Positions 1,575 to 29,913 of a stretch of DNA of 43,365 nt are shown one piece after another. The notes under the pieces were generated by a model that made no database searches, was not told the DNA's origin, and saw only the letters and a program-made list of their open reading frames with translations. A program made the position numbers and the translations under genes. The stretch comes from a bacterium (GTDB lineage Bacteria > Patescibacteriota > Gracilibacteria > Absconditabacterales > Absconditicoccaceae). The stretch lies in contig JBHAST010000058.1 in NCBI GenBank assembly GCA_041831495.1, positions 1-43,365 of the forward strand. Reading direction: 5' to 3'. Numbering within the stretch: position 1 is the first letter of the stretch; each line of letters starts with the position of its first letter.

Positions 1575-4500
1575 ATGAAAAAATTACTTTTACTGCTTCT
1601 AGTGCTGACTTTTTTCGTGGGGGGGGGTAGTTTACGCACCTTCGCCCTCATTTCAACACCAACAAGAGATTTCCCCCTTTCCACCCCTGTAGGTAGCGTG
1701 ACAGGACATTGGGACCAAGCCACCCAGACACTCAGTATCGTTGGAAACGGGAAAATTGATGTTGATAAGTGGAAGGCACTCAAAAACACCACGACTAGCC
1801 TTCATCTCGTGAATGCGAATGCCAGCGGAACTCATATTCAATTTCATTCTGGAGTGCAGTTTCCAGATAATGCAGGTCGTTTCTTTGAAGGAGTATATTC
1901 TACCATCGGATTTCCTGCATCAATGGATGTCTCTAATGTAACTGATATGAGCAATATGTTTTCTAAAGCCTATAATTTTAATGCAGAATCGCTCAATTGG
2001 TCTGTCCCTAAGGTAACCACAATGGTGGGAATGTTTCACACTACTCCAGCTTTTACGGGGAAGGTGCATTTTACCAATGCTGATAAGGTTGGTTTAATGA
2101 TTAATATGTTCTATTGATCTCGCGTCAAAGAAGTAAAAATTGAAAATACCGCAGTCCTTACCAGAGTTGATGGAATGTTTTGGGATTCTGCAGTTGAAAA
2201 AGTTGAGTTCACTGATCTCAGAAAAGTGCAAATGGCAACGAGAATGTTTATAGGAGCAACAAAATTTAATGCTGATATTGACCGAGAGGTTCCAGAACTC
2301 AAGGAAGCTTGATCTATGTTTCAAGGAACTACCGATTTTACAGGAAAGGTGATCTTGAGAAATGCAGGTAAGCTCAGCTCTTTAAACTCAATGTTTCAAA
2401 GTTCAGCAGTCAAAGAGGTAGAAATCTTGGGACTGAAAGAAGCAACTACTATGAAGCAAATGTTTTATAGAGCTACAAATCTGGAAACTGTCTCATTTGG
2501 TCCTGATCCAAAAGCTACACAAACCGTGAAAACTATGGCAAGTATGTTTGATTGAGCAAGCAAATTTAATACCGATATTGACCGAGATCTTTCAGAAACA
2601 ACAGAAACGAATGGAATGTTCGCAAATACGCCAGGCTTTTCTGGGAAGGTAAAATTGAGAAATACGGGAAAGATTATCACAACACAAACGATGTTTCATT
2701 CTTCTGCTGTGCGTGAAGTAGAGTTTGATGGCTTAACAGGGGCAACAACAATGATTCAGATGTTTGCAAAAACTGAAAATCTTCAAAAATTAAAACTCTG
2801 AGATACTTCCAATGTTCAAGATATGTCTCAGATGTTTAGGCGATCTACGATGAATCTGGATATTTCGGATTTAAGAATTGATGCTTTGACGAATGGAAGC
2901 TTATTTATCCGAGAAAATAATAAGGCTTTCTCTCGCGTAAACTATGACAAGCTTCTTTCGGGCTGGGCGAGCAGACTTCCTGCGATACCACGCGTTCCGT
3001 CGGTTCCTATAACTATCAACGCTCCTTATTGTCTAGGGAAGGCTGCAAGAGCGGAAATTATCGCTAAAGGCTATAGCATTAGCAGAGATCGACTGGACTG
3101 TGGACTCAGCATCACCGAAAGACCAGCCGCAAAAATCTCAAGTGGAACAATGGCAAAACGCCAGATTATTATTCAGTCTGCTGCCCCTATTCATACCGGG
3201 TCGATCAAGATTATCGCTGGAAATCTCGGCTATAGCAATTTGAAATGCACTTCATCAGCGGCTCTTCCGACTAAAGTGAATTGTTATCTGGATATCACCG
3301 CTACGCCTGTTGGAGCCCTTTCTCAACTCACGATTCAAGCCACAGACACGATGTGAGATAGTGAGCAATATCTCCTTTCAGGGTTTATCATTGATACGAA
3401 GAAACCAGAGATCGGGCAGGTAAGTATTGATGTGAGTAATGGAATCTCTACTCCAAAGGTCAAACTACGTGCTTTCCCAAGAGATGAATGAGGATCAGGT
3501 TTTTCTGGTTGTAATTTTGTCTATACGGGTGATGATGGGACTTTAAAAACCGTTCCTGCCTCTACTAGCGAATCGGACTTGAGTTTCGATCCAAGTGAAA
3601 CTACCCATACACTCCGCGTGCTTTGCTATGATAAGGTAGGGAATAGCTCTGAAAATCTGATCAAGTTTCCACCTATTATCACCTTTAATCCTGACAATCT
3701 CACGCTCAGCAATCAGGCTATGAACGGTGTTTTTGAGGTTTATTCTCCATCGTCGGTAGCGATTGGTAGTATTCAACTTAACTATAGTGATAATACTCCT
3801 GTTAGTTTCTCGTGCAGAAGCCAGATTGATAACGGCACAACTCCTCCCTTTACCAATAGTCCAACCGCACCTGTTCGCTGTGAATATAGCAATGCGAATC
3901 GCTCAGGAACCCTCGTCGCTAAGGCTCAAGATATCAATGGAGCTGCAGGACAGCAGATGCAAAGCGTAATCCTTGATACTAACCAGCCTCATATCACGAT
4001 CAGTCCAGAAAATGCTCTTACAAGCGGAAATCTCGTGATCAAAATTCAGGTTTTTGATGCTGTAGGAATCCAGACTTGAGCAGTAGGTATCTCAAGTTCG
4101 CTTGATCATTCAGATTGGGATTGCGTGCAAAGTGGAGCTACGATGGTTCGTTGTCAATTTACAGCAAATACTGCAATCCAAAATGGAAATCTGACCATCA
4201 CAGCAACCGACCTTGCAGGCAATGGAGAAAGTAAAACCACCTCATGATACACGATAGACCAAATGCTTCCAACTATTGACCAACTTAATGCCACTTTTCA
4301 GGAGAGCTGAACGAAACTTTTGGTGAGTTTTAGTGGTTCTGATGCTGGAGGAGCAGGGCTATGGAAGCAGTCAGAAAACGGGAATCCTCAATTTGATGCT
4401 GCTGCGATATCCTATGGTCTTGCTTCAGATGTAAATTGTAGTAATTTCGTGAGTATTGATAGCTTGAGCCCTCAAGAAATTGAGCCTTATAGCTTAAACT

Positions 4501-5945
4501 TTGAATTTAATGATGTAACTCAAAACGGAAAATACCTCTGTATCGTGGTCAAAGATAAAGTATGAAATACGCAAACAGGAGCACTTTCTAGTCCACTGAA
4601 TCTCAATATTGCACCAAGCTTCCCTCTTCATACCGCAACAATCGCTGAAAATAGTGCAATCGGAAGCTTCGTAAGCCTTCTTACTGGAAGTGATGTAAAT
4701 ACAGGTGATACCCTGACTTATACTATCATTGAAGGAAATACAGGAACAGCGTTTAGCATACAAGATAATAGACTTATAGTCAATGGTGCACTGGATTATG
4801 AAACTCTTTCAGGCTATCGTTTGATGATTAAAGTTAGTGATCAGTATGGACTCTTTTGAACGGGAGAAATGGAGATTACGCTAAACGATAAAGATGAGAT
4901 TTTGCCTACTTTAAGCACAGGAAGCTCTGTGAATTATCCGCAAGGTGCTACGATCACTCCGATTGTCTTTACAGGAAGTGATAACCAGGCGATCAGTGGG
5001 CGAAAGGTGACAGGACTTCCAGCAGGACTAACCTTTGAAGGAACGACAGGAGCTACGACAGGAAACTTGACGATCTCGGGAACCCTTTCTGCACCTACAG
5101 GAACTTATCTCATTAGTGTTGAACTTAGCGACCATGAAGGGAATGTTGCTCTTCAGACCTTTACTATTACAATCAAAACCCCTTCTCAACCTGGTTATTC
5201 ATGATGATGAGGAAAAGCACTTTCTCAGCCAACAAATCAAAATCCTGATCCTCAAACCCCAGTTCAAACCGAAAATCAGGTAAAATTCAACGATAGCGAT
5301 CTCTTCAATCCAACAATAGAAGACGGAAAGTGTTATACGAGAAGACCTCATCAGTGAATCCAGACCTCAACTACGTTCCCAACTACAGAAGAATTTAATA
5401 AAGCTCTAAGCTTTCTTTGGACTTATGAGATGACGAAATATGATAGCGTAGCTGGTTATGATCCGTATAGAAACTTGAGCAGACAGGAAGCAGCAAAAAT
5501 CTTTTCACAGTTTGCTACGAATGTCCTCTGTAGAAAACCAGATCAGAACTTAAGAGTAAACTATAGCGATACCGAAAATGCAGACCCAAGCCTGAAGCCT
5601 TATATTACGCTTGCGTATCAGCTTGGTTTGATGAAAGGAAGCGGACAAGGAGATGGGCTCTTCAGACCGTATGAAATGATCAGTAAAGCAGAGGTGAATG
5701 CCGTGTTGATTAGAATGATTTTGAAGGCTTACTTGAATGAAACATCTCTAGCAAATTGGTTTAGTAATTATAATGAAGTAGCTACGAAATTAGGAATTAT
5801 CAATCAATGAGCGGGACTACAGTCAGTTCCAAGAAATGATGTTGCATTGATGCTGTTTAGAGCCTACAAAAATCAGGTATTTGACCGACAAGAGATTGAC
5901 TATTTCAGCTATGTCTTGAAATCGAGAGATCTCTTTGTGAAGTAA
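1575..5945 (+). CDS. Giant secreted surface protein (1456 aa): DUF285/BspA-type repeats, cadherin-like repeat, Ig-like segment, SLH-like C-terminus
   Basis: Eight ORF-track pieces (1539-2117 through 5430-5810) share one frame. They are separated only by TGA: 16 in-frame TGA and no TAA/TAG by hand translation. ATG 1575 gives a signal-like N-terminus MKKLLLLLLVLTFFVGGG, and the stop is TAA 5943-5945. Motifs: repeated ..MF..A..FN.DI..W... units (DUF285-type); IAENSAIGSFV...ALDYETLSGYRLMIKVSD (cadherin-like); NLSRQEAAKIF...ISKAEVNAVLIRM (SLH-like). Confidence 0.85.
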
Positions 5946-6000
5946 TAATGCAAGTAATCGCCTTATCTGTTGATTCTTATCCCTCTTAGAATGCTAAAAA

Positions 6001-6028
6001 ACCCTCCTTAAAAAGGAGGATTTTTTGT
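6001..6028 (+). terminator. Rho-independent terminator after the surface-protein gene
   Basis: Stem CCTCCTT/AAGGAGG with an AAAA-type loop (about 6003-6020), followed by TTTTTTG. Confidence 0.7.
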
Positions 6029-6052
6029 TTTATGAAAAAAGATGCGTTTTTT

Positions 6053-6081
6053 TTGCATTTTTTTCAATTTGTCGTTATAAT
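6053..6081 (+). promoter_or_regulatory. Sigma-70-like promoter (TTGCAT, 17 nt, TATAAT)
   Basis: -35 TTGCAT at 6053-6058 and -10 TATAAT at 6076-6081, about 40 nt upstream of ATG 6120. Confidence 0.4.
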
Positions 6082-6119
6082 TGGAGTGATACTTTTTTAG
6101 TCTTTCAGTGTGAATAGTA

Positions 6120-8021
6120 ATGCCAACTAATGATTCTCAGCAAACTTCAGTAACTCCTACAAACCAGACCGTAGGTACTTCTCAGGATTATGAATTTGAT
6201 CTTGGGATTGCAAACCAAGAAGAACCAGTTTCTCAGGGACAAGACCTACTTCCTGCCACAGAGCCTCTTCAAGAAACACAGCCTGAAAGCACAGGAATGG
6301 CTTTTGATTTTAGTCTTGATCTTCCGGAGAACTATAGCCTAGCCAATGAAGCAAATGCTGAAACTCAAGTTCAGCCATCTGTTGATTTGGAGGATGACAA
6401 TTTGGAACAAGAAACCAGAGAAGAAACCCCTCAGGAGCTAAGCTTTGTAAGTTCAGAACCGCAAAAAAAACCAGAGGAAGCTTTGAGTTTTTCTGAATGA
6501 GAATCTTCATCGGTACTCCTTGAAGAACCTATAGAACAATCCGCAGAAGAGCCCGTGGAAGAACAAACTGAAGAAAATAATAATGAAAAAACTTTTTTTC
6601 AAGCAGAGCAAACAGGAGTTTCTGAGCAAACCTCTGTCGAACTCCTTACAGAATCTGCACCGTTCTTTACTCCTATTGAAGAAAGTGTTTCAGAAGCGAT
6701 TACCACTGAGAATGAACCTTCATCAATGCTTTCTGAAGATCCAATTTCTTGAGCAGATGCAGCAGCACCTCAGCTAGAAACCTTTCCTCAGGTTCAGCTA
6801 GCATCTCCTTCAGAACCCACTCCTGAACAAACTTCTGAGACTCCACAGGAACCTATTGAAGCAGCGAAACCAGAACTAGAACTTTCAAATTCAGCTTTAG
6901 AGGTGCCTCAGACACAGGAAGCTGGATGACCAAAGCTTCTTAACCTAGATGAAATGATTTCCCATTTTTCAGGTGGAGAACAGACCGCTTCTGCACAGGC
7001 AACCATGGATCCATTTAGTGCAATGAAAGCGACTTTAGAGGCACAACATCAGGAGAATCCTCAACCGAAAGAAAAACACGAAAGCCAAACTCTCTCAAAC
7101 CCGCTTCAACAAGCAGAAATTCAGACAGTTCAAAAAAGCCAAAATCAGACTTTAGAGTCTTGAACTGAAGAGTCAAAGGGAGCAATGGAAATGCCTGTCC
7201 AGACGTTAAATTTAGATGCAATGATCGCTTCAGAACAGCCGATTTCTTGAGGTCTTGAAGCTCCTGTCGTTCAGCAGACTCCAATGCCTGAAAGTCCTCT
7301 CAGCAATCCAACACTTAGCTATCCTCAGCTAATAACTCCGCCAAAGAAAGCGCAGGGAAAAGGAATTACTGTCCTTTTAGCTTCAATATTGGTCCTTGTG
7401 ATTGGAGGAATTGCTGTCATGAGATATCCAGATTTACTTTCTTTTTTTCAGTGAGGAAACACACCTACGCCTACGATTTCTGAGGAGCAGGAGCACTCTT
7501 CGGCTCCAGAGCAAACGCTTCTGACTGGAGAAGAAAATAATGAACTCTTGTCTGGAGCTCAGGAGGAGGATACTTTTGAGTCTTTAGAAGAGATTACCCT
7601 AGATGAGCTTTCTTCGGATGAAGAAAAAGAGATTCCACTTATTGATCTCAGCTCTGGAGAGGCAACCACAAGCAATACTTCTGGGGACACCTCTTTGCCT
7701 TCACTTCCAGAAAATCAAAATCAGAATCCTGAATCAGGAACGGTGGATCCTTTAGGAGCAGTAGAGGGATTGGTTGGTCCAATCAATAATAATGATGTGA
7801 TTAAGCAAGAAGTTCTTGAATACCAACAAAAGGGACAAAGTCTCAAAGAACAAGGAAGTGCTCAAGCAAAGAAAACGATGATGAAATATGGGCTTGCTGT
7901 AGAGAAAGAGGCAACAGACCTTTTAAATACGCTTGCAAATGGTGGAAATATTACTATATCTGAGCGGTCAGCTTTGAAGCTCAAGCTTGATAATTATTTA
8001 CAGACTGCAAATAATGCCTAA
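6120..8021 (+). CDS. Acidic, low-complexity (E/Q/P/S/T-rich) protein with a single TM helix (633 aa)
   Basis: ORF-track pieces 6120-6500, 6555-6752, 6954-7163 and 7548-8021 are in one frame joined by TGA. The gaps were hand-checked for TAA/TAG. There is one hydrophobic helix, GITVLLASILVLVIGGIAVM (about 7365-7425). The stop is TAA 8019-8021. Confidence 0.8.
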
Positions 8022-8118
8022 ATCATCAACCTTTTGAAAAAAAATATCGACCTACCAGAAGAAAAAGGAGGAGCTTCAGCCTTCCTTTTCTTTCTTAGCA
8101 AAAAAAAGAGGAAATCCC

Positions 8119-8997
8119 ATGAAAATGTCCTCCTTGTTTGCCACCTACCTTGAATATCTTGAACATACTAAAAATGTCAGCCCTAGAACGCTTTCAAACT
8201 ACAAACTCTGGATTCTGAGGGCAATTCACTTTTTCTGAGACCCAAAAATTCAGGACCTCAAACCTTTGGATGTTCTTGAACTCAGAAAGGAGCTGAGAGA
8301 GCAGGGACTTAGCAAAAAAACGATAAATTATCATATTATTGCCTTGAGATCCTTCCTTAGGTTTCTGCTCAAGAATGATATTGACTGCATGAGTCCTGAC
8401 AAATTGGAACTTGCAAAAATTCCTCAGAGAGAGGTTCATTTTTTGCAGGAAGAGGAAATTACGCAGCTTTTGCTTGCACCAAGAACACGAGGGAATGCTG
8501 AACTTCAAATCGCAAGGGATGAATTAATTCTCGCTATCCTCTATGGAACGGGGCTAAGAGTTTCAGAATTAATTTCCTTGCAAAAAAACCAAATTATCCT
8601 TTGAGAAAAACAGTTTTCTATCAGAGGAAAAGGATCAAAACTCAGATCAGTTTTTTTGACTGGTTCTGCAATGCAAAAACTCTCTGAATATCTCCAGTTA
8701 AGAAGCGACAACTATCCTCCACTTTTTATAAGCCTTGCTAAGAATAGCTATGGAAATCAGCTTTCTAGAAATTCGGTAGAAGCGCTGGTAAAAAGCTATG
8801 CAAAAAAAATCTGACTCAAAAAAAAGGTTACGCCACATACGCTTAGACACTCTTTTGCGACAATGCTACTCAAAAAGGGGGCAGATATCAGATCGGTACA
8901 AACACTCCTTGGACACGCATCCATCACAACAACCCAGATTTATACCCATATTGATGACCGTTTTCTCAAAAAAGTTCACGATCTCCTTGATGAATAA
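8119..8997 (+). CDS. xerC: Tyrosine recombinase, XerC/XerD family (292 aa)
   Basis: ATG 8119 to TAA 8995-8997 with three in-frame TGA. Catalytic signature: GLRVSEL (Arg), HTLRHSFAT (His-x-x-Arg), [15 protein letters not shown] (His, Tyr). The N-terminal SAM-like core-binding segment is [15 protein letters not shown]. Confidence 0.9.
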
Positions 8998-18242: not shown

Positions 18243-18472
18243 TTTTGGGTGGGGTTAAACGCCTGAAGTGTAGCATTTTTCGGAAGAAATGCAAGAGGAG
18301 GCTAATTCTCGGAATTTATTTCTTTTTAGAGAGTTTTAAGGGGCAAAGATACTTTTCTTCTTTCTTACAGGAGTTGAGGCTTGGATGACTAAATTTGAGC
18401 TTCTACTTGAACTTTCTTTTCCTTTCACTATAAGCAATCAGATTTTTATTTTTCTTTTTCTTTTATAGTGTG

Positions 18473-19219
18473 ATGAAAAAACTCGTGTTGCTCCGCCATG
18501 GAGAAAGTACTTGGAATCAAGAAAATAGATTTACTGGGCGAACGGATGTTGATCTAACAGAAAAAGGGATTCAAGAGGCGATAAAAGCTGGGAAACTTCT
18601 CAAAGAGCAGGGTTTTCAGTTCAAAAAAGCCTTTACTTCTTACCTTAAAAGAGCGATCAAAACGCTGAATATGGTGCTTGATCAGATGGATCTTGATTGG
18701 ATTCCTGTAGAAAAGAGTCGAAGACTGAATGAAAAACACTACGGAATGCTTCAAGGGCTCAATAAAGCAGAAACTGCGCAAAAATATGGAGAAGAACAGG
18801 TTCTTGTGCGAAGAAGAAGCTATGATGTTCCTCCAACTCCGCTTGAGAAGTCAGATACTCGTTCTCCTTTCCAAGATCCTCGCTATGCAGAGGTGGCAGA
18901 AGCAGATTTGCCCCTCACCGAGTCGCTTAAGGACTGTGTTGCTCGTATTTTACCCTACTGGAAAGCGCAAATTTTGCCGACTTTAGCTCAAGAGGGAGAA
19001 ATTCTGGTTGCAGCACATGGAAATAGTCTGAGAGGGATTATCAAGGTCATCAAAGGGATTTCTGATGAGGGAATCGTTAGTCTTAATCTCCCAACGGCAG
19101 TGCCTTATGTTTTTGAGTTTAATGATGAAATGGAACTTGTAAAGGATTATTTTCTTGGAGATCCAGAAGAGATCAAAAAACTGATGGATGCTGTCGCAAA
19201 TCAGGGGAAAAAGCAGTAA
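18473..19219 (+). CDS. gpmA: 2,3-bisphosphoglycerate-dependent phosphoglycerate mutase
   Basis: [32 protein letters not shown] and AAHGNSLRG give near-full-length colinearity with dPGM. The three CGA codons fall on the invariant Trp positions (see findings). Confidence 0.95.
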
Positions 19220-19663
19220 TTATTCCTCTCTGCCTTGGATTACTTTTTTAATATCTCCGAGGCGATAGCCTTTTCTCATCAGCTTTTGAATGATTTCAAA
19301 TCCCTCAACGCCCTTTTTCTTGTATTGTCTGATTTCTTTTTCTATACCTTGCAAAATTCCTTCCTGAATATCTTCAGCATATTTTTCCATAAGCTGAGCG
19401 AGCAAAGCTTTATCAATACCTTTGAGTTCCAGCTTTTGTTTAATCACAAAAAGTGGCTTTCCCTTTCTGATTACTTCGCTATTAAGATAACTTTCCGCAA
19501 AAAGCTGATCATTCACAAAGTTTTCAGCCTTTAATTTTTCTAAAGTTCTCATCACCATTTCAGAATCATAGCCTTGTTGATAAAGTTTAATCCTAAGTTC
19601 CTTTTCAGTTTTTGGGTATTTACTGATGAGAGTTATCGCATATTCATAACAAGATTTTGCCAT
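19220..19663 (-). CDS. recX: Recombination regulator RecX
   Basis: 147-aa ORF with three-fold helical repeats typical of RecX (..EKELRIKLYQQGYDSEMV..L.KLKAENFVNDQLFAESY...). Confidence 0.75.
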   Translation of the reverse strand: MAKSCYEYAITLISKYPKTEKELRIKLYQQGYDSEMVMRTLEKLKAENFVNDQLFAESYLNSEVIRKGKPLFVIKQKLELKGIDKALLAQLMEKYAEDIQEGILQGIEKEIRQYKKKGVEGFEIIQKLMRKGYRLGDIKKVIQGREE

Positions 19664-19666
19664 TGA

Positions 19667-20134
19667 TTAAGATTGAAAATATAAATGTTCATTTTCTAAA
19701 AATGTATTTCGTGCAATTTTAACCGCTTGTGGAGTGATTTTTGATAGTACTGCTTCTTTTGCTTCCCAAGTGATGCTGAATTCTCATATTTGTTGCTCTA
19801 AATCAAACAGCTCAGCAAAAAAGAAATGAGATATAGAATGCAAATTAAGATCCTGCTTTTGCTCATACCTTTCAAGGTGAATAATTACCTGCAGATTTTT
19901 AATCTTCTTAATATGAAGAAATCAGACCTCTTCTTTAATCTCTCTTTCAACTGCTTGTTCTAAGCTTTCTTCTTCAATTCATCATCAAGGGACGGTAATG
20001 CCATATTTTTCTTCAATGAGGGCAAATTTTTCTTGACTTGGATGCTTTAAAAAGCAGGCAACTCTTTCTCTAGTCGTTCGTTCCTTTCAATTTTGAGGGG
20101 GCTGAAGTTCCGATACAATCCTGATCTTTTGCAT
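19667..20134 (-). CDS. Nudix hydrolase (155 aa)
   Basis: Hand translation of the minus strand gives the Nudix box VPGGGIEEEESLEQAVEREIKEEVG. The GGG is three consecutive TGA (19979-19987). This gene is absent from the standard-code ORF track. Confidence 0.85.
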
Positions 20135-20976
20135 TACAACAATTCATCAAATAAAGCTCCGACCTCACCAAAATCTCCATCGCCGATGAGAACGAGATCA
20201 AAAGCTTCTTCGTAAGTCTTAAGAAGCTCAGGAGTTTCAGAAATCAAAATTCAAATTTTAAGCACAGTTTCATGAGAATTTCCCTGTGCCATTTGAGCAT
20301 CACCAAGCCCATCACCGATCACGATAACATTTTTTCTCTTCTCAAGCTGACTTTTCAGTTCAGGGAGTTTAGAAAAAACTCATTCATCTTTATTGAGTGC
20401 ATGAATAATTTCTCCTTCAATACCTTTCGCAACTCCCTCTTCATCTCGGATAAAATGGTTGATAACATAAGAAATATTAGGAAAATCGCATTGATTATGC
20501 TGCATAAAAAGCGGAATTGCATCTCCACAACCGCTTGCAGAAAAAATCACAATCGGGATTCAGCTTTCATTCAATTTTTTGAGGCAATCCTTCACACCAT
20601 TTCTGAGCTGAAGATGCCCATTAGTTGCGATATCTTTAAGATCTGAAAGTCTAAGTTTTGAATCAATCAAAAGCTGATCATGCTTTTCTCGCCATTCCTG
20701 CATTTGAGCTTTTTTGTATTCTAAGTCTAATGCTGGATTACATTCTATAGCATGATAATGATCAAAAAGTGCATGAGCTTTTTCTGCATAATCGTCGGTC
20801 AAATGATTACCATCTCTCAAAAGTGAGATAATACTCGGTGTTTTTTTCCCATTGAAAGTACCATAAGTAAGCGTTCTATCAAAATCAACAAGAATATAGG
20901 AAAAGTTCTTCCCAGCCTGTTGAATTATTCTCTTTTTCTGGGCAAAAAGTTCTGGATTTTTGATACGAACTTGCAT
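20134..20976 (-). CDS. HAD-superfamily pyrimidine 5'-nucleotidase (UMPH-1/NT5C3-like), 280 aa
   Basis: Motifs are DFDRTLT (motif I), FSASGCGD, GDGLGDAQMA and FI.DEEGVAKGIEGEIIHALNK (compare NT5C3 [23 protein letters not shown]). Track piece 20560..20976 extends through three TGA. The stop TAA overlaps the Nudix ATG (TAATG at 20132-20136). Confidence 0.75.
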
Positions 20977-20979
20977 TGA

Positions 20980-21594
20980 TTATTGAGCCAAAGTAAAGTG
21001 AACACTTTCATTTCAAGAAACAAATTCTGAACTCATCACTCAGTCAGCCTCTTTTTTTTCAATACTCAATAGAAGCGCTTCTCCTTTGAGAAATTCATCA
21101 AATTCCTCCAAAATTGCGGTCAGATTTTCGCTTTCAGTGCTATAGGTTAGCTTTACCTTTTGCTCCACGGCAAAATCAGCATCTTTTCTCATCTGATTAA
21201 GGAAACGAGAAATCTCCCTTGCTACCCCTTCTCTCTCAAGTTCTGGAGTTAAATTCAAATCAAGTTCCGCGATCATATTTCCCTCTACTGCAATATTGTC
21301 CGCATCTAGTCCCTCATACGCCACTTCGTAATCCTCAGCACTCAAAATCCAGCTTCACCCCTGCGGAGAAAAAACTTCAATCTGTCTGTTTTCAAGTTCT
21401 CTGATATTTCCTTGCTTTCCATTAGCGATAATTTGTCCTGTATCTTTCCCAAATTTCGCAGAAAGTTGGCTTCCAAGGGGTTTAAAAACTTTTACCAAAG
21501 GTTTTTCGGAATGGAAAGATCAGATTTCTTTTACATTTACTTCTTCTTTGATGATTTCGCCATATTTTTCCAAAAGTTGTTGTTCGTTGAGCAT
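20980..21594 (-). CDS. Free-standing homologue of the C-terminal domain of type-2 isoleucyl-tRNA synthetase (204 aa)
   Basis: ...EEVNVKEI...FKPLGSQLSAKFGKDTGQI...LDLNLTPELEREGVAREISRFLNQMRKDADF.. matches the IleRS C-terminal junction/anticodon-contact region. ATG 21592-21594 is preceded in frame by TAG TAG. The upstream 164 bp is non-coding and leads to the divergent tilS gene. Confidence 0.7.
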
Positions 21595-21758
21595 TGTTCT
21601 CTACTAAAAAGGGTAAAATTAAATTTCCTAAAAAATATTAAACCTGACCTTATCATAGTAAATCCCCCTCTGAATGCAAGATTTCTTTCGGCAGATTTCC
21701 TCTTTACAATCAAGGAGGATTTGACTATACTCTCTCCATTTATCAGAAGAACGTTGTA

Positions 21759-23033
21759 ATGCTCACTCGTTTCCAAGCATTTCCATCGCTTCATCAGAAT
21801 TTTCCTCAGCTCTTTACGCTCCTTGAGCAACTTTTTCCGATAGAGCAGAAGCTTGCAATTGGGCTTTCTGGGGGGAGCGATAGTATGTTTCTGAGTGCGG
21901 TGCTTGCAAGTTTTTGGCAGGAGAAACAATGGAATCCTGATCAGCTTTTTTTCTTGCATTGCAATCATCAGATCAGAGAAGAAAGCAAAGCAGAAGCTGA
22001 ATTTCTCCAAGCGTTTTTCCAAGATTGGCAGCTCAAAATCTTCACAAGAGAAGAAAGCTGAATCGCGAGCGAGGAATCCTTGAGAAACTGGAGATATGCT
22101 TGTTTCAGGGAGTTTTGTGAGAAAAGGGGGATTAGTCTGCTTTCGCTCGGTCATCATCTCAATGATAAGATTGAAACTTCCATGATGAATTTGATTCGTG
22201 GTTGCTGATTGCAGGGCTTTCTCAATATGCAGGTTCAGAGTTCACATGCTTTAGTTCCTCAAATGCAGGTTCTTAGACCACTTCTGAGGCTGAGCAAACA
22301 GGAGATTGAGCAAGCTTGCTTGGCGCTTGAGCTTCCTTTTGTTGAGGATCAGAGCAATTTTGAGAGCGAAACCAGCCTGAGAAATAAACTCAGAAATGAA
22401 ATTCTCCAGCCACTTAGCCAGCTAGGAAACCAAAAATCGGGAAAATCCAGCTTTTTTGAGAGCCGAAAGCTTATCTATCAGCAGCTAGAAGCCCAAAAAC
22501 AAGAAGACTGAAGCAAACGACTTTCTCCACTCAGAAAAAGCCCTTACCGGAATGCAGAGCAAGCTTTTGAACGAACGCTTCCTAGGACTTTGATCAGTAG
22601 CATGAGTTTGTATGGGCTTTTTCAGCTTTTAGAGATTGATGCGAAAAAAAACGAGCTTGCTTCTATTGTAGATCGGCTCCAAAAAGGAAGCGATGGCTTT
22701 CGTGAACTCGGGAAATGGACGATTTTTTTGGCACATCAGCAAATTTTTCTGATCAAAGGGAAAGCGAGATTCCGAGAAAAAGAACTCCAGCTTGAAAAAA
22801 CAATCACTCAAAGCGGAATTCAGACTTTTGGAGCTTTCCAGTTAGAAACTCCAGAATTCCTCATCGGAGCAAGGCTGAGATTTCCAAAAGCAGGCGATCA
22901 TTACCAAGGAAAACTCCTCAGCAAATGGGCATTAAACCACAAAATCCCTGTTTTCCGAAGAAACGCACTTCCTCTTGCAGAAAAAGAGGGAAAGCTTATA
23001 CTCGTTTTCAGTCCACAGCAGCTTATCTTTTAA
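21759..23033 (+). CDS. tilS: tRNA(Ile)-lysidine synthase TilS (424 aa)
   Basis: The PP-loop is IGLSGGSDS, followed by LGHHLNDKIETSMMNLIRG. Track pieces 21759-22061, 22209-22511 and 22590-23033 are in one frame joined by TGA. Confidence 0.9.
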
Positions 23034-24455: not shown

Positions 24456-24944
24456 ATGACGAAAACTCAGCAACTTTTAGCGCAGATTAGCGAGCAGATC
24501 AATGCCCTTGAGATCGCGTGATATATCAAGGAAGAGGTGCTTGCTTCTCTCAAATACCTGCATTGGTATAAACTCCAAAATATCCAGAAAAATCTGACCC
24601 TTTTTTGCGAATATCTTGAATATCTCAATCTCCAAAATACCGATAAAATCAGCCAGCTCGGCACCAACACTTCAAAAACACCGAGCGAAGAGAAAAGGGA
24701 ACTGAGTTATTTCCTCGTTCCAGAAAAAAAACTGAGCAAGAAATCCGAACAATCCTTCCTCCAAAAGATTGCTGCCAATGGCTACGAGCTTTTAACGCTG
24801 ATCCAAGGCGTGAAAGGGATTCTCGTGCTGAGTATTGATGAGTTTTGTAATGCTTCTCAGACAAGAATGGGGATCCACCAGCTTCTGATGGAAAGAGAAA
24901 CGGATTACAAAAAAGTCATAAAAAAAAGAAAAGCTGACTCGTAG
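24456..24944 (+). CDS. Hypothetical soluble protein (162 aa)
   Basis: ATG 24456, one in-frame TGA, joins track piece 24537..24944. It has no TM helices, so it is not an FtsX permease. Confidence 0.6.
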
Positions 24945-25018
24945 TGGTCAGTTTTTTTCTATTTGAAATAAGGAGGAGGAATCGTTATACTTCTGCTCTT
25001 TATGATGGTTTTTCCCTA

Positions 25019-26260
25019 ATGTCATCTCCTGATTTCCTCCTTTCCTCCTATGATTATCTACTTCCTGAATCTTGTATCGCTCAGGAGCCTGCTCATCCTG
25101 CTCATAATGCAAAAATGATGGTTGCAATCCCTGATAAGCAGGGGGATTTTGAACTTCAGGATCAGCATTTTCTTGATTTGGCAGCGCAGCTTGATGAGAA
25201 CTATCTGCTTTTCCTCAATAGTACCAAGGTTTTTAAGGCAAGAATTCCGCTTCACAATACCAAAATCATCAGAAAAAGTGGAAAGGAAGTGCTGCTCGCC
25301 TCAGGTGAGATTTTTATTTATCAGCTGCGTTCCGAAAGTCAGTTTGAATGCCTTGTTTCTGATAGTAAAAACTTCAAACCCTGAAGCCAGATCTTTTTTG
25401 AAGAGGGGATTGTGTTCAAGAGTCTGGCTTTCACGGAAAATGGGCTTCTGTTCGAGATTATTGATCTGAAGCGTACTGATGGAAAGGCTCAGCTTTTTGA
25501 TTTTTTAGAGAAGCGGGGAGAAATGCCTTTGCCGCCTTACATTCGCTATGAAAAAGAGAAAGAACAGCGGTATCAAACCTTTTTTGCGGAAAAGGTCGGT
25601 TCTGCTGCAGCTCCTACGGCTTCATTGCATTTTACTCCAGAGCTTGTGAGGCGTTTAGCGTCCAAAAATGTCGGATTTCAGTACTGCTGTTTGCATGTGG
25701 GGCTGGGGACGTTTAAGCCGCTTTATGAAGAAAATATTGCTGATCAGAAGCTCCATTTTGAGCCGATGCTGATTGATCCCCAGATTCGAAAGCTGATCGC
25801 TGATGCCAAGCAAGCTGGAAAAATCTTCCTGCCCGTTGGGACGACAATGATCAGGTATTTGGAGTCTTTACCGTATATTTGGAGATTCCTCAAAAAGAAA
25901 AATCTGATTTCATCTCTTGATCCTGCTACGCAAGCACGACGAAATGATCTAAGCTCCCCAATTTCCGAAGAGTTGATAGCTGAGTTTATTCCTGAAACTT
26001 ACTCAAATGTATCTGATTCTGCAATTTTAGCACCTGGGTGATACCTCATTCAAACCAGGCTTTTTATCAGACCGTGAATTCCTTTTTATTTGACTGATGA
26101 GCTGATTACAAACTTTCATCTACCAAAATCTTCGCTTATGATGCTGATTTCCGCTTTTATGGGAAGAAAAAACCTCTTGAAATGCTATCAAGAGGCGATC
26201 TGAAAAGGCTATCAGTTTTATAGTTTTTGAGATGGAATGCGAGTAAGAAGAAAGGCTTAG
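25019..26260 (+). CDS. queA: S-adenosylmethionine:tRNA ribosyltransferase-isomerase QueA (413 aa)
   Basis: [65 protein letters not shown] and YQFYSF[TGA]DGM. Track pieces 24944-25384 and 25412-26041 plus a tail are joined by TGA. Confidence 0.9.
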
Positions 26261-27227: not shown

Positions 27228-29849
27228 TTACTGGGTAGGGTGTTCCTGTTTCCAAAGTGCATTGAGATATTTTACAAAGAATCTTCTATTTTGTTCAGCT
27301 TCTATAGTAGGAAACTTTCTATCCATAGTACTCAGGATTGGAATTCTATCGCTGAGGATCGTTATTTCTGTTCCATTATTGTGTTTGAAGATAATGTTTT
27401 GAAAGATACGATCATATCGTGTTGAAGATAATGAGAACGGGTAATTTTCATCGTTCTGTTTTTGTAAATCTGGAGTCTCTCATCGTGTGTTGTGATCATT
27501 CTTCAACATGCTCACTAAGAGCCCTATATGCAATAATTCTTCGGCAGATCCAATAGGGATTTCATTTCCCGTAGCATCAACAAAGCCCTCAAGGCGTTTC
27601 TGTTTCATATTGAGTTTGATCTCTTGACCGTAGGCTTTCAGGGTGATACTTTCGGTGTCATTAACTTCAAGTCCTAGCTGCTCAATGTTTGCTTTCCCAG
27701 CCATAGTTTTATAGGTCTTGTAGAGTGTGAGTTTTTCGCTATCAGGGAGCCCAAGCTTTTGAATATTTTGAAAAGTCTCATCATGAGGCAAGAGTAATCC
27801 TTCTTCTTGCATTTTCTTAAAATCACTCTTGCTGAGTTGCTTGTTCGTAAAGATTCTCTGTTCTAATTCCTGTCTTTTCTCCTCATTTACGGTGAGTTGA
27901 TATTGAGTACAGTAATTTTCAAGTTGTTTGAAAGCTTCAGAATCCTGATAAAGTCTTTCATTTAGGTTATTTTGTGCAGAACTTGGATTTGCAAGGTCTT
28001 CTGCTTTGAGTTGCATTTTCTCAATCTCTTGTTGAAAGCGTTTTTCATTGCCTTGGTTGTTGATGATGCTTTCTAGGGCAGCAAGCTGACTTTTGAGAAT
28101 GGATTCAGTTTTCCTATCTTGATTTGCCTTTGCTTTTTCTAGTTCTCAAGTATAGTAGTCTTTTAGTTTTCCTGTATCAATATGAGTAATATTTCCCATT
28201 GCTGGAGAGCTACACTGTGCTAAAGTGCTAAATGGTACACCCAAAAGCACAAATTGAAGCATACTTTGGTTGACAGCAATCTTTTCAATTCCTGTGGCTT
28301 GGTCAAATGCTTTACTATTCCAAGGCGCAACTCCTGTTCTTCGGAAAGTATTGATATTTTCTAATAATCACTTTCCTGTTGCTGCTTGAGAAGCATAGTT
28401 TGCAAGCATTGGAAGTCCAATCGCAGCAGCAATTTTTCCAAGTGAAAAGCCAAATTTTCATTCCTTGTTTGTAAAAAGCCATTTTCCTACAAGAATCGCT
28501 GCTCCAATCATTCCAACCGTTGTAAGCGTATTGACTGCATTTCTCGCTTGTCCATGAGACATTTTTGTATTTTTATCAAGCCACTTTTCTGCGATGTTTG
28601 CATAGCCTCCACAGGTTTGAAAATAGGTATTAACCGGAACAAAGTTTTTATTAAAGTCTTTTTGAAGCAATGCTTGATTATAGATTTCAATTGGTTTCCC
28701 TTGATAGGAGAGTGTGGTTTTTGCTCCAGATTTAATTTTATTTTTGTTTTTGTAGAGATCAATGATCAGCGGGTTTTGTTCAAGAAAAGCGATTGGAGTA
28801 TTGATATAAATGCCCTGTTCTAAGGCTTGAGCGATTTGTCAAAGTACACTTGCCTTTCGTAGTTTGTAATTATTGCTATTTTGCTCATTAAGGAGTTTTT
28901 CGTAAGATGTAAGCAGTTTATCAAGTTCTTTTCCAGATTTTTTTTCTGCTTTTAATCTTTTTTCTATTCTTTTTCTTGCTGCCTTAATACTAGCAGGATC
29001 CAAAAGATCTTCTCTAGTGAGGTAATCTTGATATTTCTTAGGAATCTGAAGAGAGAGTGCTTGAGGAGGGGCGACTAAGCTATCAATCCTATCTAATTCA
29101 CGCAACTGTTCAGCGGTAAGGAAAATGTTCCCTTTCTCGTCAGGCTTAATCGTTTTTGAAAGTTTTTCCAAACGCTTCGTAACTTCTTGTGCTTTTTGGT
29201 CAAGAGTAAGTTCTGCTTTTTGTTCGTGAGTTTCAGATTTCTCTTCTGATGAAGTCTGAGGCGTTGTGCTTTTCGTTTCTGGGACTTGTTCCTGAGTCAT
29301 GGTATTTGAGATTTGTTCGTTTGTTTCTGAGACCTGTTCTTGAGTGATAGTCTTTGAGCTTTCGTCCTTTGTTTTTTCCTGAAGGTTTCAACTACTAGGA
29401 GCTTGTGCTAATTGTTTTTTTATGCTAAGAATGATGCGATCTTGCTCTGGAGTCGTAGTAAATTTCTCCTCAAGAAGAAGTTGTTCTGCAGTTTTTCAAG
29501 CTCCATTTTCTTTGATTCGTTGCTGAAAGTTGGGATTATCTGGATTTTTCCCTTCAAAATTATACCTTTTAGAGAGTTCAATACCTGTTTTTTGAAAGAG
29601 CGCTTCCTGTTCTGGGGTAAAGCTAAAGTTTTGTTCAGTTAGTAGTTTTTCTGCTTTGTCATAATGTTCCTTTCAAAAAAGATTTTCAATAAAAGATTTC
29701 CTGAGCGCTTTCATATCAATGCGATTTACCTGTTCAGAAAACTTATCAAGAGGTTTTTCTGCAATTTTTTCTCAGAGTTGCTTTACTTCCATGCTTGATA
29801 GTGAAGGAGCTTGCTGCTCGGTTTCTTTTTTGATTTCAACGATATTCAT
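27228..29849 (-). CDS. Large uncharacterised membrane protein 'D' (873 aa): coiled-coil/STQ-rich N-terminus, Gly/Ala-rich TM pair, helical C-terminus
   Basis: Track pieces 28839-29300, 28458-28670 and 27480-28016 share a frame. All gaps were translated codon by codon and contain only TGA. The upstream in-frame stop is at 29934-29936, the first ATG at 29847-29849, and TAA at 27228-27230. The TM candidates are TTVGMIGAAILVGKWLF and FGFSLGKIAAAIGLPMLANYA. Confidence 0.8.
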
Positions 29850-29884
29850 CAGTTTTTCTCTAAGAGATAAAATTCCCTGCCTCA

Positions 29885-29913
29885 AGTATATCCAGAAAAC
29901 TGAAAAATGTCAA
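29885..29913 (-). promoter_or_regulatory. Near-consensus sigma-70 promoter for gene D (TTGACA, 17 nt, TATACT)
   Basis: On the minus strand: TTGACA (29908-29913), exactly 17 nt, then TATACT (29885-29890). This sits about 36 nt upstream of ATG 29849. Confidence 0.55.

Follow-up and report, generated by a model that had tools for sequence, protein, structure and literature searches.

The window analyzed here, the whole 43,365-nucleotide contig JBHAST010000058.1 of assembly GCA_041831495.1 from a bacterium of the family Absconditicoccaceae (order Absconditabacterales), contains on its minus strand a 204-residue open reading frame (ORF) that encodes, as a gene of its own, the C-terminal module of a type-2 isoleucyl-tRNA synthetase (IleRS2). 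The body of the synthetase is encoded on a different contig, by a gene that ends precisely where this ORF takes over when both are aligned with fused homologs. We conclude that the organism very probably assembles its sole IleRS from the products of these two unlinked genes, here termed alpha (the body) and beta (the window ORF), and that beta is neither a relic nor a paralog. The two-gene IleRS is ancient and selectively maintained.

A small ORF encodes the C-terminal module of a type-2 IleRS

Read with TGA as a sense codon (translation table 25), the beta ORF begins with an ATG at 21594, contains four in-frame TGA codons, and terminates with a TAA at 20982-20980. Given this reading, the ORF has, as the initial annotation stated, a start codon of its own preceded in frame by two TAG codons. 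Under table 11 the region breaks up into short fragments, the largest of 101 residues; under table 25 the window reads as a series of ordinary open genes, beta and its neighbors alike.

We read TGA as glycine because the source genome encodes a tRNA with the anticodon UCA (a single gene, labeled SeC by ARAGORN), and because TGA occurs in the alpha gene at the glycine of the motifs LGI and IGI, positions that are glycine in other IleRS. The same assignment has been described for SR1 bacteria in the available part of the report by Kantor et al. (2013, PMC3812714). Furthermore, the glycine of the EG motif, which is invariant in the third of the C-terminal ARD domains (ARD3), reads W in 33 of 119 database sequences, presumably because the sources used code 4 to translate TGA; one database relative of beta carries the label 'candidate division SR1 bacterium'. 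The source organism is a code-25 bacterium of the SR1/Absconditabacteria type.

The beta protein matches Pfam family DUF5915 (PF19302) from position 2 to position 191 of 195 (E 3.9e-28; 98.8 bits, cut-off 27); in a control search, the same profile found its target in eight of 14 reference genomes. Beta further aligns with residues 827-1010 of the MupA/MupB type-2 IleRS models and residues 832-1010 of the Priestia megaterium enzyme (PmIleRS2, PDB 8C8U/8C8V; E about 1e-11), in keeping with the initial description of the ORF as the C-terminal region of a type-2 IleRS and nothing more. Public databases hold 581 matches to the beta protein (112-357 residues, E up to 1e-5), which are given no name, or are called 'hypothetical protein' or 'isoleucyl-tRNA synthetase'. 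Contigs from an RNA library (run X1, an oral metatranscriptome; 95-99% alike) cover 20974-21614 and neither neighboring gene; they are a weak hint that beta is transcribed, and parts left uncovered in this run do not count as evidence of silence.

The features of the beta gene are as follows.

20980-21594, minus strand: beta gene of the split type-2 IleRS, comprising ARD3 and the remainder of ARD2 with its INS subdomain (DUF5915)
21595-21600, minus strand: TAG TAG, in-frame stops immediately 5' of the beta ATG, which allow no upstream extension of the ORF
21310-21513, minus strand: INS (D-loop-binding) subdomain, approximate; residues about 28-95, aligned with PmIleRS2 851-923, borders inferred
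21184-21189, minus strand: codons of R136 and K137, equivalent to R964 and K965 of the ARD3 pocket by alignment to PmIleRS2

The only IleRS gene of the genome lacks exactly this module

The window is contig C58 of an assembly (G000) of 1.05 Mb in 82 contigs that is 91.5% complete. In a genome-wide profile search DUF5915 had a single match, the window ORF. A first search with the ileS model gave 740 bits, summed, on contig C64, which carries the sole IleRS-class match above the cut-off of that model. This is the alpha gene (C64:7862-12688; locus L010:862-5688), which encodes 1608 residues under code 25 and scores 753.6 bits against TIGR00392 (cut-off 621.4) in five stretches broken by inserts. 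The alpha protein ends with ...VKQPLQKLGLKL and a stop codon, just past Pfam domain Anticodon_1 (residues 1449-1603) and seven residues past a conserved KQPL motif; it contains no DUF5915, and the next ORF on C64, of 369 residues, is unrelated.

Aligned with nine fused homologs, the end of alpha and the start of beta lie in the same short loop, with zero overlap and zero loss, at about residue 824/825 in PmIleRS2 numbering. Alpha and beta thus add up to one fused enzyme, of which no second complete copy was found in the assembly. Among the roles initially envisaged for the ORF, a part of a split synthetase is therefore the one borne out, the main ileS gene lacking precisely the DUF5915 module; the full-length ileS with an identical C-terminus that would have spoken against it was not found in the 91.5%-complete assembly. 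Alignment with the fused homologs revealed no additional residues, such as intein halves (about 100 and about 35 residues), at the termini of the two proteins, alpha ending with LKL and beta beginning with MLN.

An alpha-sized body can be a stable protein, since chain A of PDB entry 1ILE (1ile_A, Thermus thermophilus IleRS; 821 residues) has this extent: its match to a fused homolog ends 13 residues before the natural break.

Two further candidates were rejected. A match to the ileS model on contig C25 is valyl-tRNA synthetase (1211 bits) rather than a second IleRS, and an 885-residue ORF in the window (27228-29885, minus strand, code 25), considered as the IleRS body, has no Pfam or NCBIfam match; its N-terminal half is of low complexity and rich in Glu, Lys, and Gln, and a hydrophobic stretch lies in its middle.

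The alpha protein itself is interrupted four times, by a Nudix domain at residues 224-325 and by histidine-phosphatase sequences at about 655-885, 935-1160, and 1285-1440. The middle histidine-phosphatase insert occurs in this genome alone among 47 sampled IleRS genes: members of the split clade described below typically contain the Nudix domain and two histidine-phosphatase inserts, and fused lineages contain none, the Nudix domain only, or one.

The detached module retains key anticodon-reading residues

According to the available text of a 2026 study of IleRS C-terminal remodeling (PMC13752280), the IleRS2 C-terminus consists of ARD1, ARD2 with the inserted INS subdomain (PmIleRS2 851-923), and ARD3, the last of which averages 82 residues and has ARD2 as its structural homolog. 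The same text places the pocket for anticodon base 34 in ARD3, lined by Q961, R964, K965, and L969, and reports that replacing R964 with alanine lowers aminoacylation by PmIleRS2 more than 100-fold (PMC13752280).

By alignment, the equivalents of Q961, R964, K965, and L969 in beta are N133, R136, K137, and F141, and the equivalent of K862 is K38. We examined these positions in 119 stand-alone sequences, comprising beta itself, 113 of 120 database matches that are 185-245 residues long, and five sequences from other genera. All 119 have R136 and K137, and 116 have K38; the position of L969 is Phe in 115. The essential arginine of the ARD3 pocket and its lysine are thus retained, and two supporting pocket residues (Q961 and L969) are substituted. 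Because the ARD3 pocket residues sit on beta, alpha alone is without an element that the fused enzyme requires.

The stand-alone gene is conserved and under purifying selection

To follow the ORF beyond this genome we read the corresponding loci of 21 relatives from the same family under code 25. Counting open frames with TGA as a stop outside the match is misleading here: it makes two fused genes (G017 and G019) look stand-alone. The ORF is stand-alone and intact in 19 of the 21 relatives (203-266 residues), and G017 and G019 are the two fused cases.

The ratio of nonsynonymous to synonymous substitution rates (dN/dS) of beta is 0.058-0.099 in seven unsaturated pairs, namely the source genome against G015, G014, and G007 (dS 0.68-0.87), G015 against G014 and against G007, G004 against G001, and G008 against G010. 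The pair G006/G003 gave 0.143 at a dS of only 0.09, and values for more distant pairs, in which dS is high or saturated, are unreliable. Beta is under strong purifying selection.

These results bear directly on the idea, raised in the initial annotation, that the ORF might be a decaying relic, or else a redundant paralog of a full-length ileS. The ORF is indeed short and detached, and public sources leave it nameless or list it as a 'hypothetical protein'. However, the genome contains no other DUF5915 and its only ileS lacks the module, dN/dS is 0.06-0.10, the ORF is intact in this genome and in all 19 split relatives, and R136 and K137 are invariant in the stand-alone set. We therefore regard decay or redundancy as scarcely credible.

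The split is ancient and the two genes are unlinked

We searched the complete set of 141 species genomes that represent the order (one family, 59 genera) with a profile spanning the alpha/beta junction. In 29 genomes a single match crosses the junction, that is, the gene is fused; in five the pieces meet near profile position 170; and in most of the remaining genomes the tail of the body stops at about 213-230 and the C-terminal piece lies elsewhere. DUF5915 was detected in 134 of the 141 genomes, always in one copy, and the seven genomes with no match are 81-90% complete.

For a gene broken as in the source genome, 93 genomes yielded both parts: 86 have them on different contigs and seven (G007, G018, G134, G135, G142, G151, and G152) on a single contig, at a distance of 14-531 kb; alpha and beta are adjacent in none of the 93. 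The body stops at an identical residue in G007, G004, and G018. More generally, 25 of the 47 sampled IleRS genes (19 genera, read under code 25) end 6-10 residues past KQPL, and these 25 alpha genes terminate with TAA or TAG, never with TGA. Three end earlier, at ...SVHLxDW... (G021 and G117 of genus g6, and G125 of genus g51), 18 (17 genera) are fused, and one (G102) is cut off by the end of its contig.

That the split reflects assembly, binning, or gene calling (a chimera, TGA taken as a stop, or a frameshift) has some points in its favor: the source assembly is fragmented into 82 contigs, counting TGA as a stop did make G017 and G019 look split, and the junction with the neighboring tilS gene on this contig is unsupported by other assemblies. 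Nevertheless, 25 independent assemblies agree on the residue at which alpha ends, with TAA or TAG as its stop codon, both parts share a contig at a distance of 14-531 kb in seven genomes, including the single-contig genome G142, and the beta start and the stops upstream of it are covered by independent contigs. An artifact is accordingly an explanation to which we attach almost no weight.

A quick maximum-likelihood tree was computed from 46 of the 47 sampled IleRS genes (G114 was excluded as too short) and four outgroups (LG+G4, 850 columns, SH-aLRT support only); the search was a fast one, and the tree describes the gene rather than the species. Of the 25 genes broken as in the source genome, 24 were included, and all 24 group in a single clade (SH-aLRT 100, stem length 0.53). 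Among fused lineages, the earlier break appears in two places, giving a minimum of three changes of state.

This second type of split lies about 45 residues upstream of the first, roughly at the ARD1/ARD2 border. In G021 (locus L025 = G021:C7:65001-75000, 3068-8727) its halves share a strand, and between them lie an unassigned ORF and the genes of a Nudix protein and of an IS200-like transposase (the latter at 30 bits, cut-off 23); the halves are 4.2 kb apart in G117 and on different contigs in G125 and G118. The arrangement in G021 suggests that the insertion of mobile DNA is one route to fission.

Two chains that would work as one enzyme

We propose that alpha supplies the catalytic HUP domain, the CP1/editing domain, ARD1, and some 44 residues at the start of ARD2, and that beta would supply what remains of ARD2, the INS subdomain, which should bind the tRNA D-loop, and ARD3. 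The ARD3 pocket would then take position 34 of the anticodon, occupied by G34 in tRNA-Ile(GAU) and by lysidine in tRNA-Ile2. The genome encodes one tRNA-Ile(GAU), three tRNA(CAU) genes, and tilS, so that this organism should have both tRNA-Ile species. The two chains presumably assemble with no covalent link, and the assembled alpha-beta enzyme would charge tRNA-Ile like fused IleRS2. Judging from published domain ranges, which put the start of ARD2 near PmIleRS2 residue 780, ARD2 appears to be broken some 44 residues from its start; with a break inside this domain, the folding of ARD2 may need both chains.

Several points weigh against this proposal. Some tRNA contacts differ from those of PmIleRS2, the position of Q961 being Asn in 118 and that of F865 being Gly in 116 of the 119 stand-alone sequences. 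The position of the break within ARD2 is arithmetic from published ranges (INS 851-923, ARD3 about 82 residues), and a comparison of the N-terminal part of ARD2 with an ARD3 profile was not significant (probability 0.1%, E 0.56). Neither new terminus has gained a dimerization element in the alignment with fused homologs. The RNA-library contigs over beta may stem from DNA carried over into the library. Finally, a completeness of 91.5% leaves room for a second ileS in unassembled sequence; this doubt is countered by the single-copy state of DUF5915 in every genome of the order that has it (134 of 141).

A different way of using the same two proteins is conceivable, in which beta is a free tRNA-Ile-binding factor that binds the anticodon and the D-loop and then passes the tRNA on to alpha, or contacts alpha solely while on the tRNA, with no stable complex being formed. 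Trbp111 and Arc1p are similar in idea. The two genes are unlinked and not co-transcribed, and the termini show no new interface element, both of which fit such a factor. So does the mobility of the INS/ARD2 region in fused PmIleRS2, which rotates by about 77 degrees upon tRNA binding according to the available text (PMC13752280). On the other hand, if the break is about 44 residues into ARD2, as it appears to be, neither chain has the whole domain, which favors joint folding. In addition, the same source describes the anticodon cleft as made jointly by ARD1 and ARD3 (PMC13752280), that is, by parts of alpha and of beta. We consider a free factor unlikely, and an alpha-beta enzyme assembled from both chains remains our preferred reading.

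A more speculative extension of the assembled enzyme, to which we give a low probability, is that beta is a dissociable specificity subunit that tunes, through its dosage, IleRS turnover or the balance between tRNA-Ile(GAU) and lysidine-containing tRNA-Ile2, and that the 45-residue stretch at the ARD1/ARD2 border is a fission hot spot in SR1 bacteria. If so, dissociation of beta might speed product release, in line with the raised kcat of PmIleRS2 upon weakening of its C-terminal tRNA contacts, and the ARD1/ARD2 border would have undergone three or more breaks, spread over two sites, with an IS200-like transposase gene next to one of the breaks.

The adjacent tilS gene and the surrounding locus

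Upstream of beta, a spacer separates it from a divergent tilS gene, and three genes follow it downstream; the spacer, tilS, and the three downstream genes (a HAD nucleotidase, a Nudix hydrolase, and recX) are all present as initially annotated, the last three being identified by Pfam matches.

21759-23033, plus strand: tilS, 424 residues (PF01171, E 2.8e-40; TIGR02432, 161.2 bits, cut-off 93.6)
21595-21758: beta-tilS spacer, 164 bp, within which lies the junction at 21685-21694
20134-20976, minus strand: HAD-IE/UMPH-1-type 5'-nucleotidase, 280 residues (PF05822, E 1.9e-56), starting 4 nucleotides past the beta stop
19667-20134, minus strand: Nudix hydrolase, 155 residues (PF00293, E 8.7e-11)
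19220-19663, minus strand: recX, 147 residues (RecX_HTH1/2 domains)

Among these neighbors, recX recurs, being directly or nearly directly downstream of beta in 14 of the 21 relatives. The HAD nucleotidase follows beta in three (G015, G005, and G007), sometimes between beta and recX, and a Nudix hydrolase was found beside beta in none of the 21 (BLAST, E 1e-5). TilS was found within about 5 kb of beta in none of the 21 relatives either, and the five congeners all have it at another location, at a distance of 502 kb in G007 and on another contig in the rest.

The junction between beta and tilS was compared with contigs from three DNA runs that are 95-99% identical on both sides; none of those listed crosses 21685-21694. 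On the tilS side, three contigs (X4 record 12, X5 record 14, and X6 record 19) match up to 21695 and carry other sequence beyond, and on the beta side one (X5 record 13) matches up to 21684. Two alternative 30-letter flanks from the other runs are absent from the source assembly and from the loci fetched, and no repeat of the spacer was found elsewhere in the genome. Either a genuine rearrangement specific to this strain or a misjoin may therefore account for the junction. This doubt leaves the beta ORF unaffected, because its start and the upstream TAG TAG are covered by independent contigs (runs X5 and X1) with no differences listed there. The initial annotation had named a chimera at about 21600 as a possible objection; at the ORF start itself independent coverage speaks against one, while at 21685-21694, slightly further upstream, support from other assemblies is lacking.

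These observations bear on how the pairing with tilS is to be read. TilS forms the lysidine of tRNA-Ile2 that IleRS must recognize, an established biochemical link, and a divergent promoter could co-regulate lysidine formation and the module that reads lysidine at position 34. The head-to-head arrangement across 164 bp in this contig would suit such a role, as would one promoter-like site on the plus strand facing tilS (21703-21731). Yet the pairing has no synteny in the 21 relatives or the five congeners, the contigs of the three DNA runs diverge at 21684/21695 with none bridging, and promoter-like sites are fewer than in shuffled controls (4 versus a mean of 8.0). The functional tie to tilS that was initially proposed is thus very improbable, and the adjacency looks accidental, with no functional meaning.

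Other observations on the window and genome

A stand-alone histidine-phosphatase/phosphoglycerate-mutase-like gene (18470-19219, plus strand) adjoins recX, close to the stand-alone Nudix gene, and the window thus contains genes of the same domain types as the alpha inserts. The inserts were considered as copies of these window genes and this was rejected, the similarity being only distant (Nudix, E 0.003; phosphoglycerate-mutase-like, E 0.001). The queA gene (24944-26260, plus strand, 438 residues) matches its Pfam family over residues 33-432 against a profile of 322 positions, which leaves about 80 extra residues; like IleRS, QueA seems to be a housekeeping enzyme into which sequence has been inserted. 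ARAGORN lists 37 tRNA genes in the 91.5%-complete genome, and neither tRNA-Gly(GCC) nor tRNA-Gly(CCC) is among them.

Significance of a detached anticodon-recognition module

IleRS is an essential enzyme, whose acceptance of tRNA-Ile is decided by its C-terminal module; across 19 sampled genera this module is encoded apart from the rest of the enzyme. These organisms offer a natural system for asking how far anticodon recognition needs a covalent link, and they bear on the current study of how the IleRS C-terminus has been remodeled (PMC13752280). There are practical consequences as well: annotation pipelines leave beta 'hypothetical' or nameless and may score ileS as truncated, and split IleRS could be misclassified in surveys that require one chain to include the C-terminal domain. 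The case of tilS illustrates that a tempting guilt-by-association reading can arise from a single assembly.

Comparison with known systems

Full-text searches of the literature, covering the papers but not their supplements, gave no description of a detached IleRS C-terminal gene, and in the available text of the 2026 study 'split' occurs four times, never in the sense of a detached gene (PMC13752280). Compared with the fused PmIleRS2 described there, alpha and beta sum to the same HUP, CP/editing, ARD1, ARD2 with INS, and ARD3 regions, and R964 and K965 are conserved (PMC13752280). In contrast to that enzyme, the parts here come from two genes that are not linked, with the break at about residue 824 of PmIleRS2, alpha contains a Nudix domain and two or three histidine-phosphatase inserts, and Q961 is replaced by Asn and F865 by Gly.

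The IleRS of SR1 bacterium RAAC1 belongs to the same lineage, and a Nudix insert and two phosphoglycerate-mutase inserts were noted in SR1 IleRS by Kantor et al. (2013, PMC3812714). The available part of that report describes the inserts within one gene and mentions no detached C-terminal gene (PMC3812714). The alpha gene studied here differs from the RAAC1 gene in having a third histidine-phosphatase insert, which is present in no other sampled genome.

The T. thermophilus chain in 1ILE, which stops within 13 residues of the natural end of alpha, is that of a fused enzyme lacking its C-terminal module, not a natural subunit. Shiba and Schimmel reportedly observed in 1992 that fragments of Escherichia coli IleRS, split in the laboratory, reassemble in vivo; backbone breaks are tolerated there too, although those cuts were artificial and made in a type-1 enzyme, whereas the break described here is a natural and long-lived one in a type-2 enzyme. 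Split synthetases also occur in nature, as in the alpha-beta leucyl-tRNA synthetase of Aquifex aeolicus and the alanyl-tRNA synthetase of Nanoarchaeum equitans. As in those cases, a single synthetase would here require the cooperation of two chains, each with a gene of its own; unlike them, the split concerns another enzyme and another break site, the detached part is confined to the terminal tRNA-recognition module, and two break sites occur within one bacterial order.

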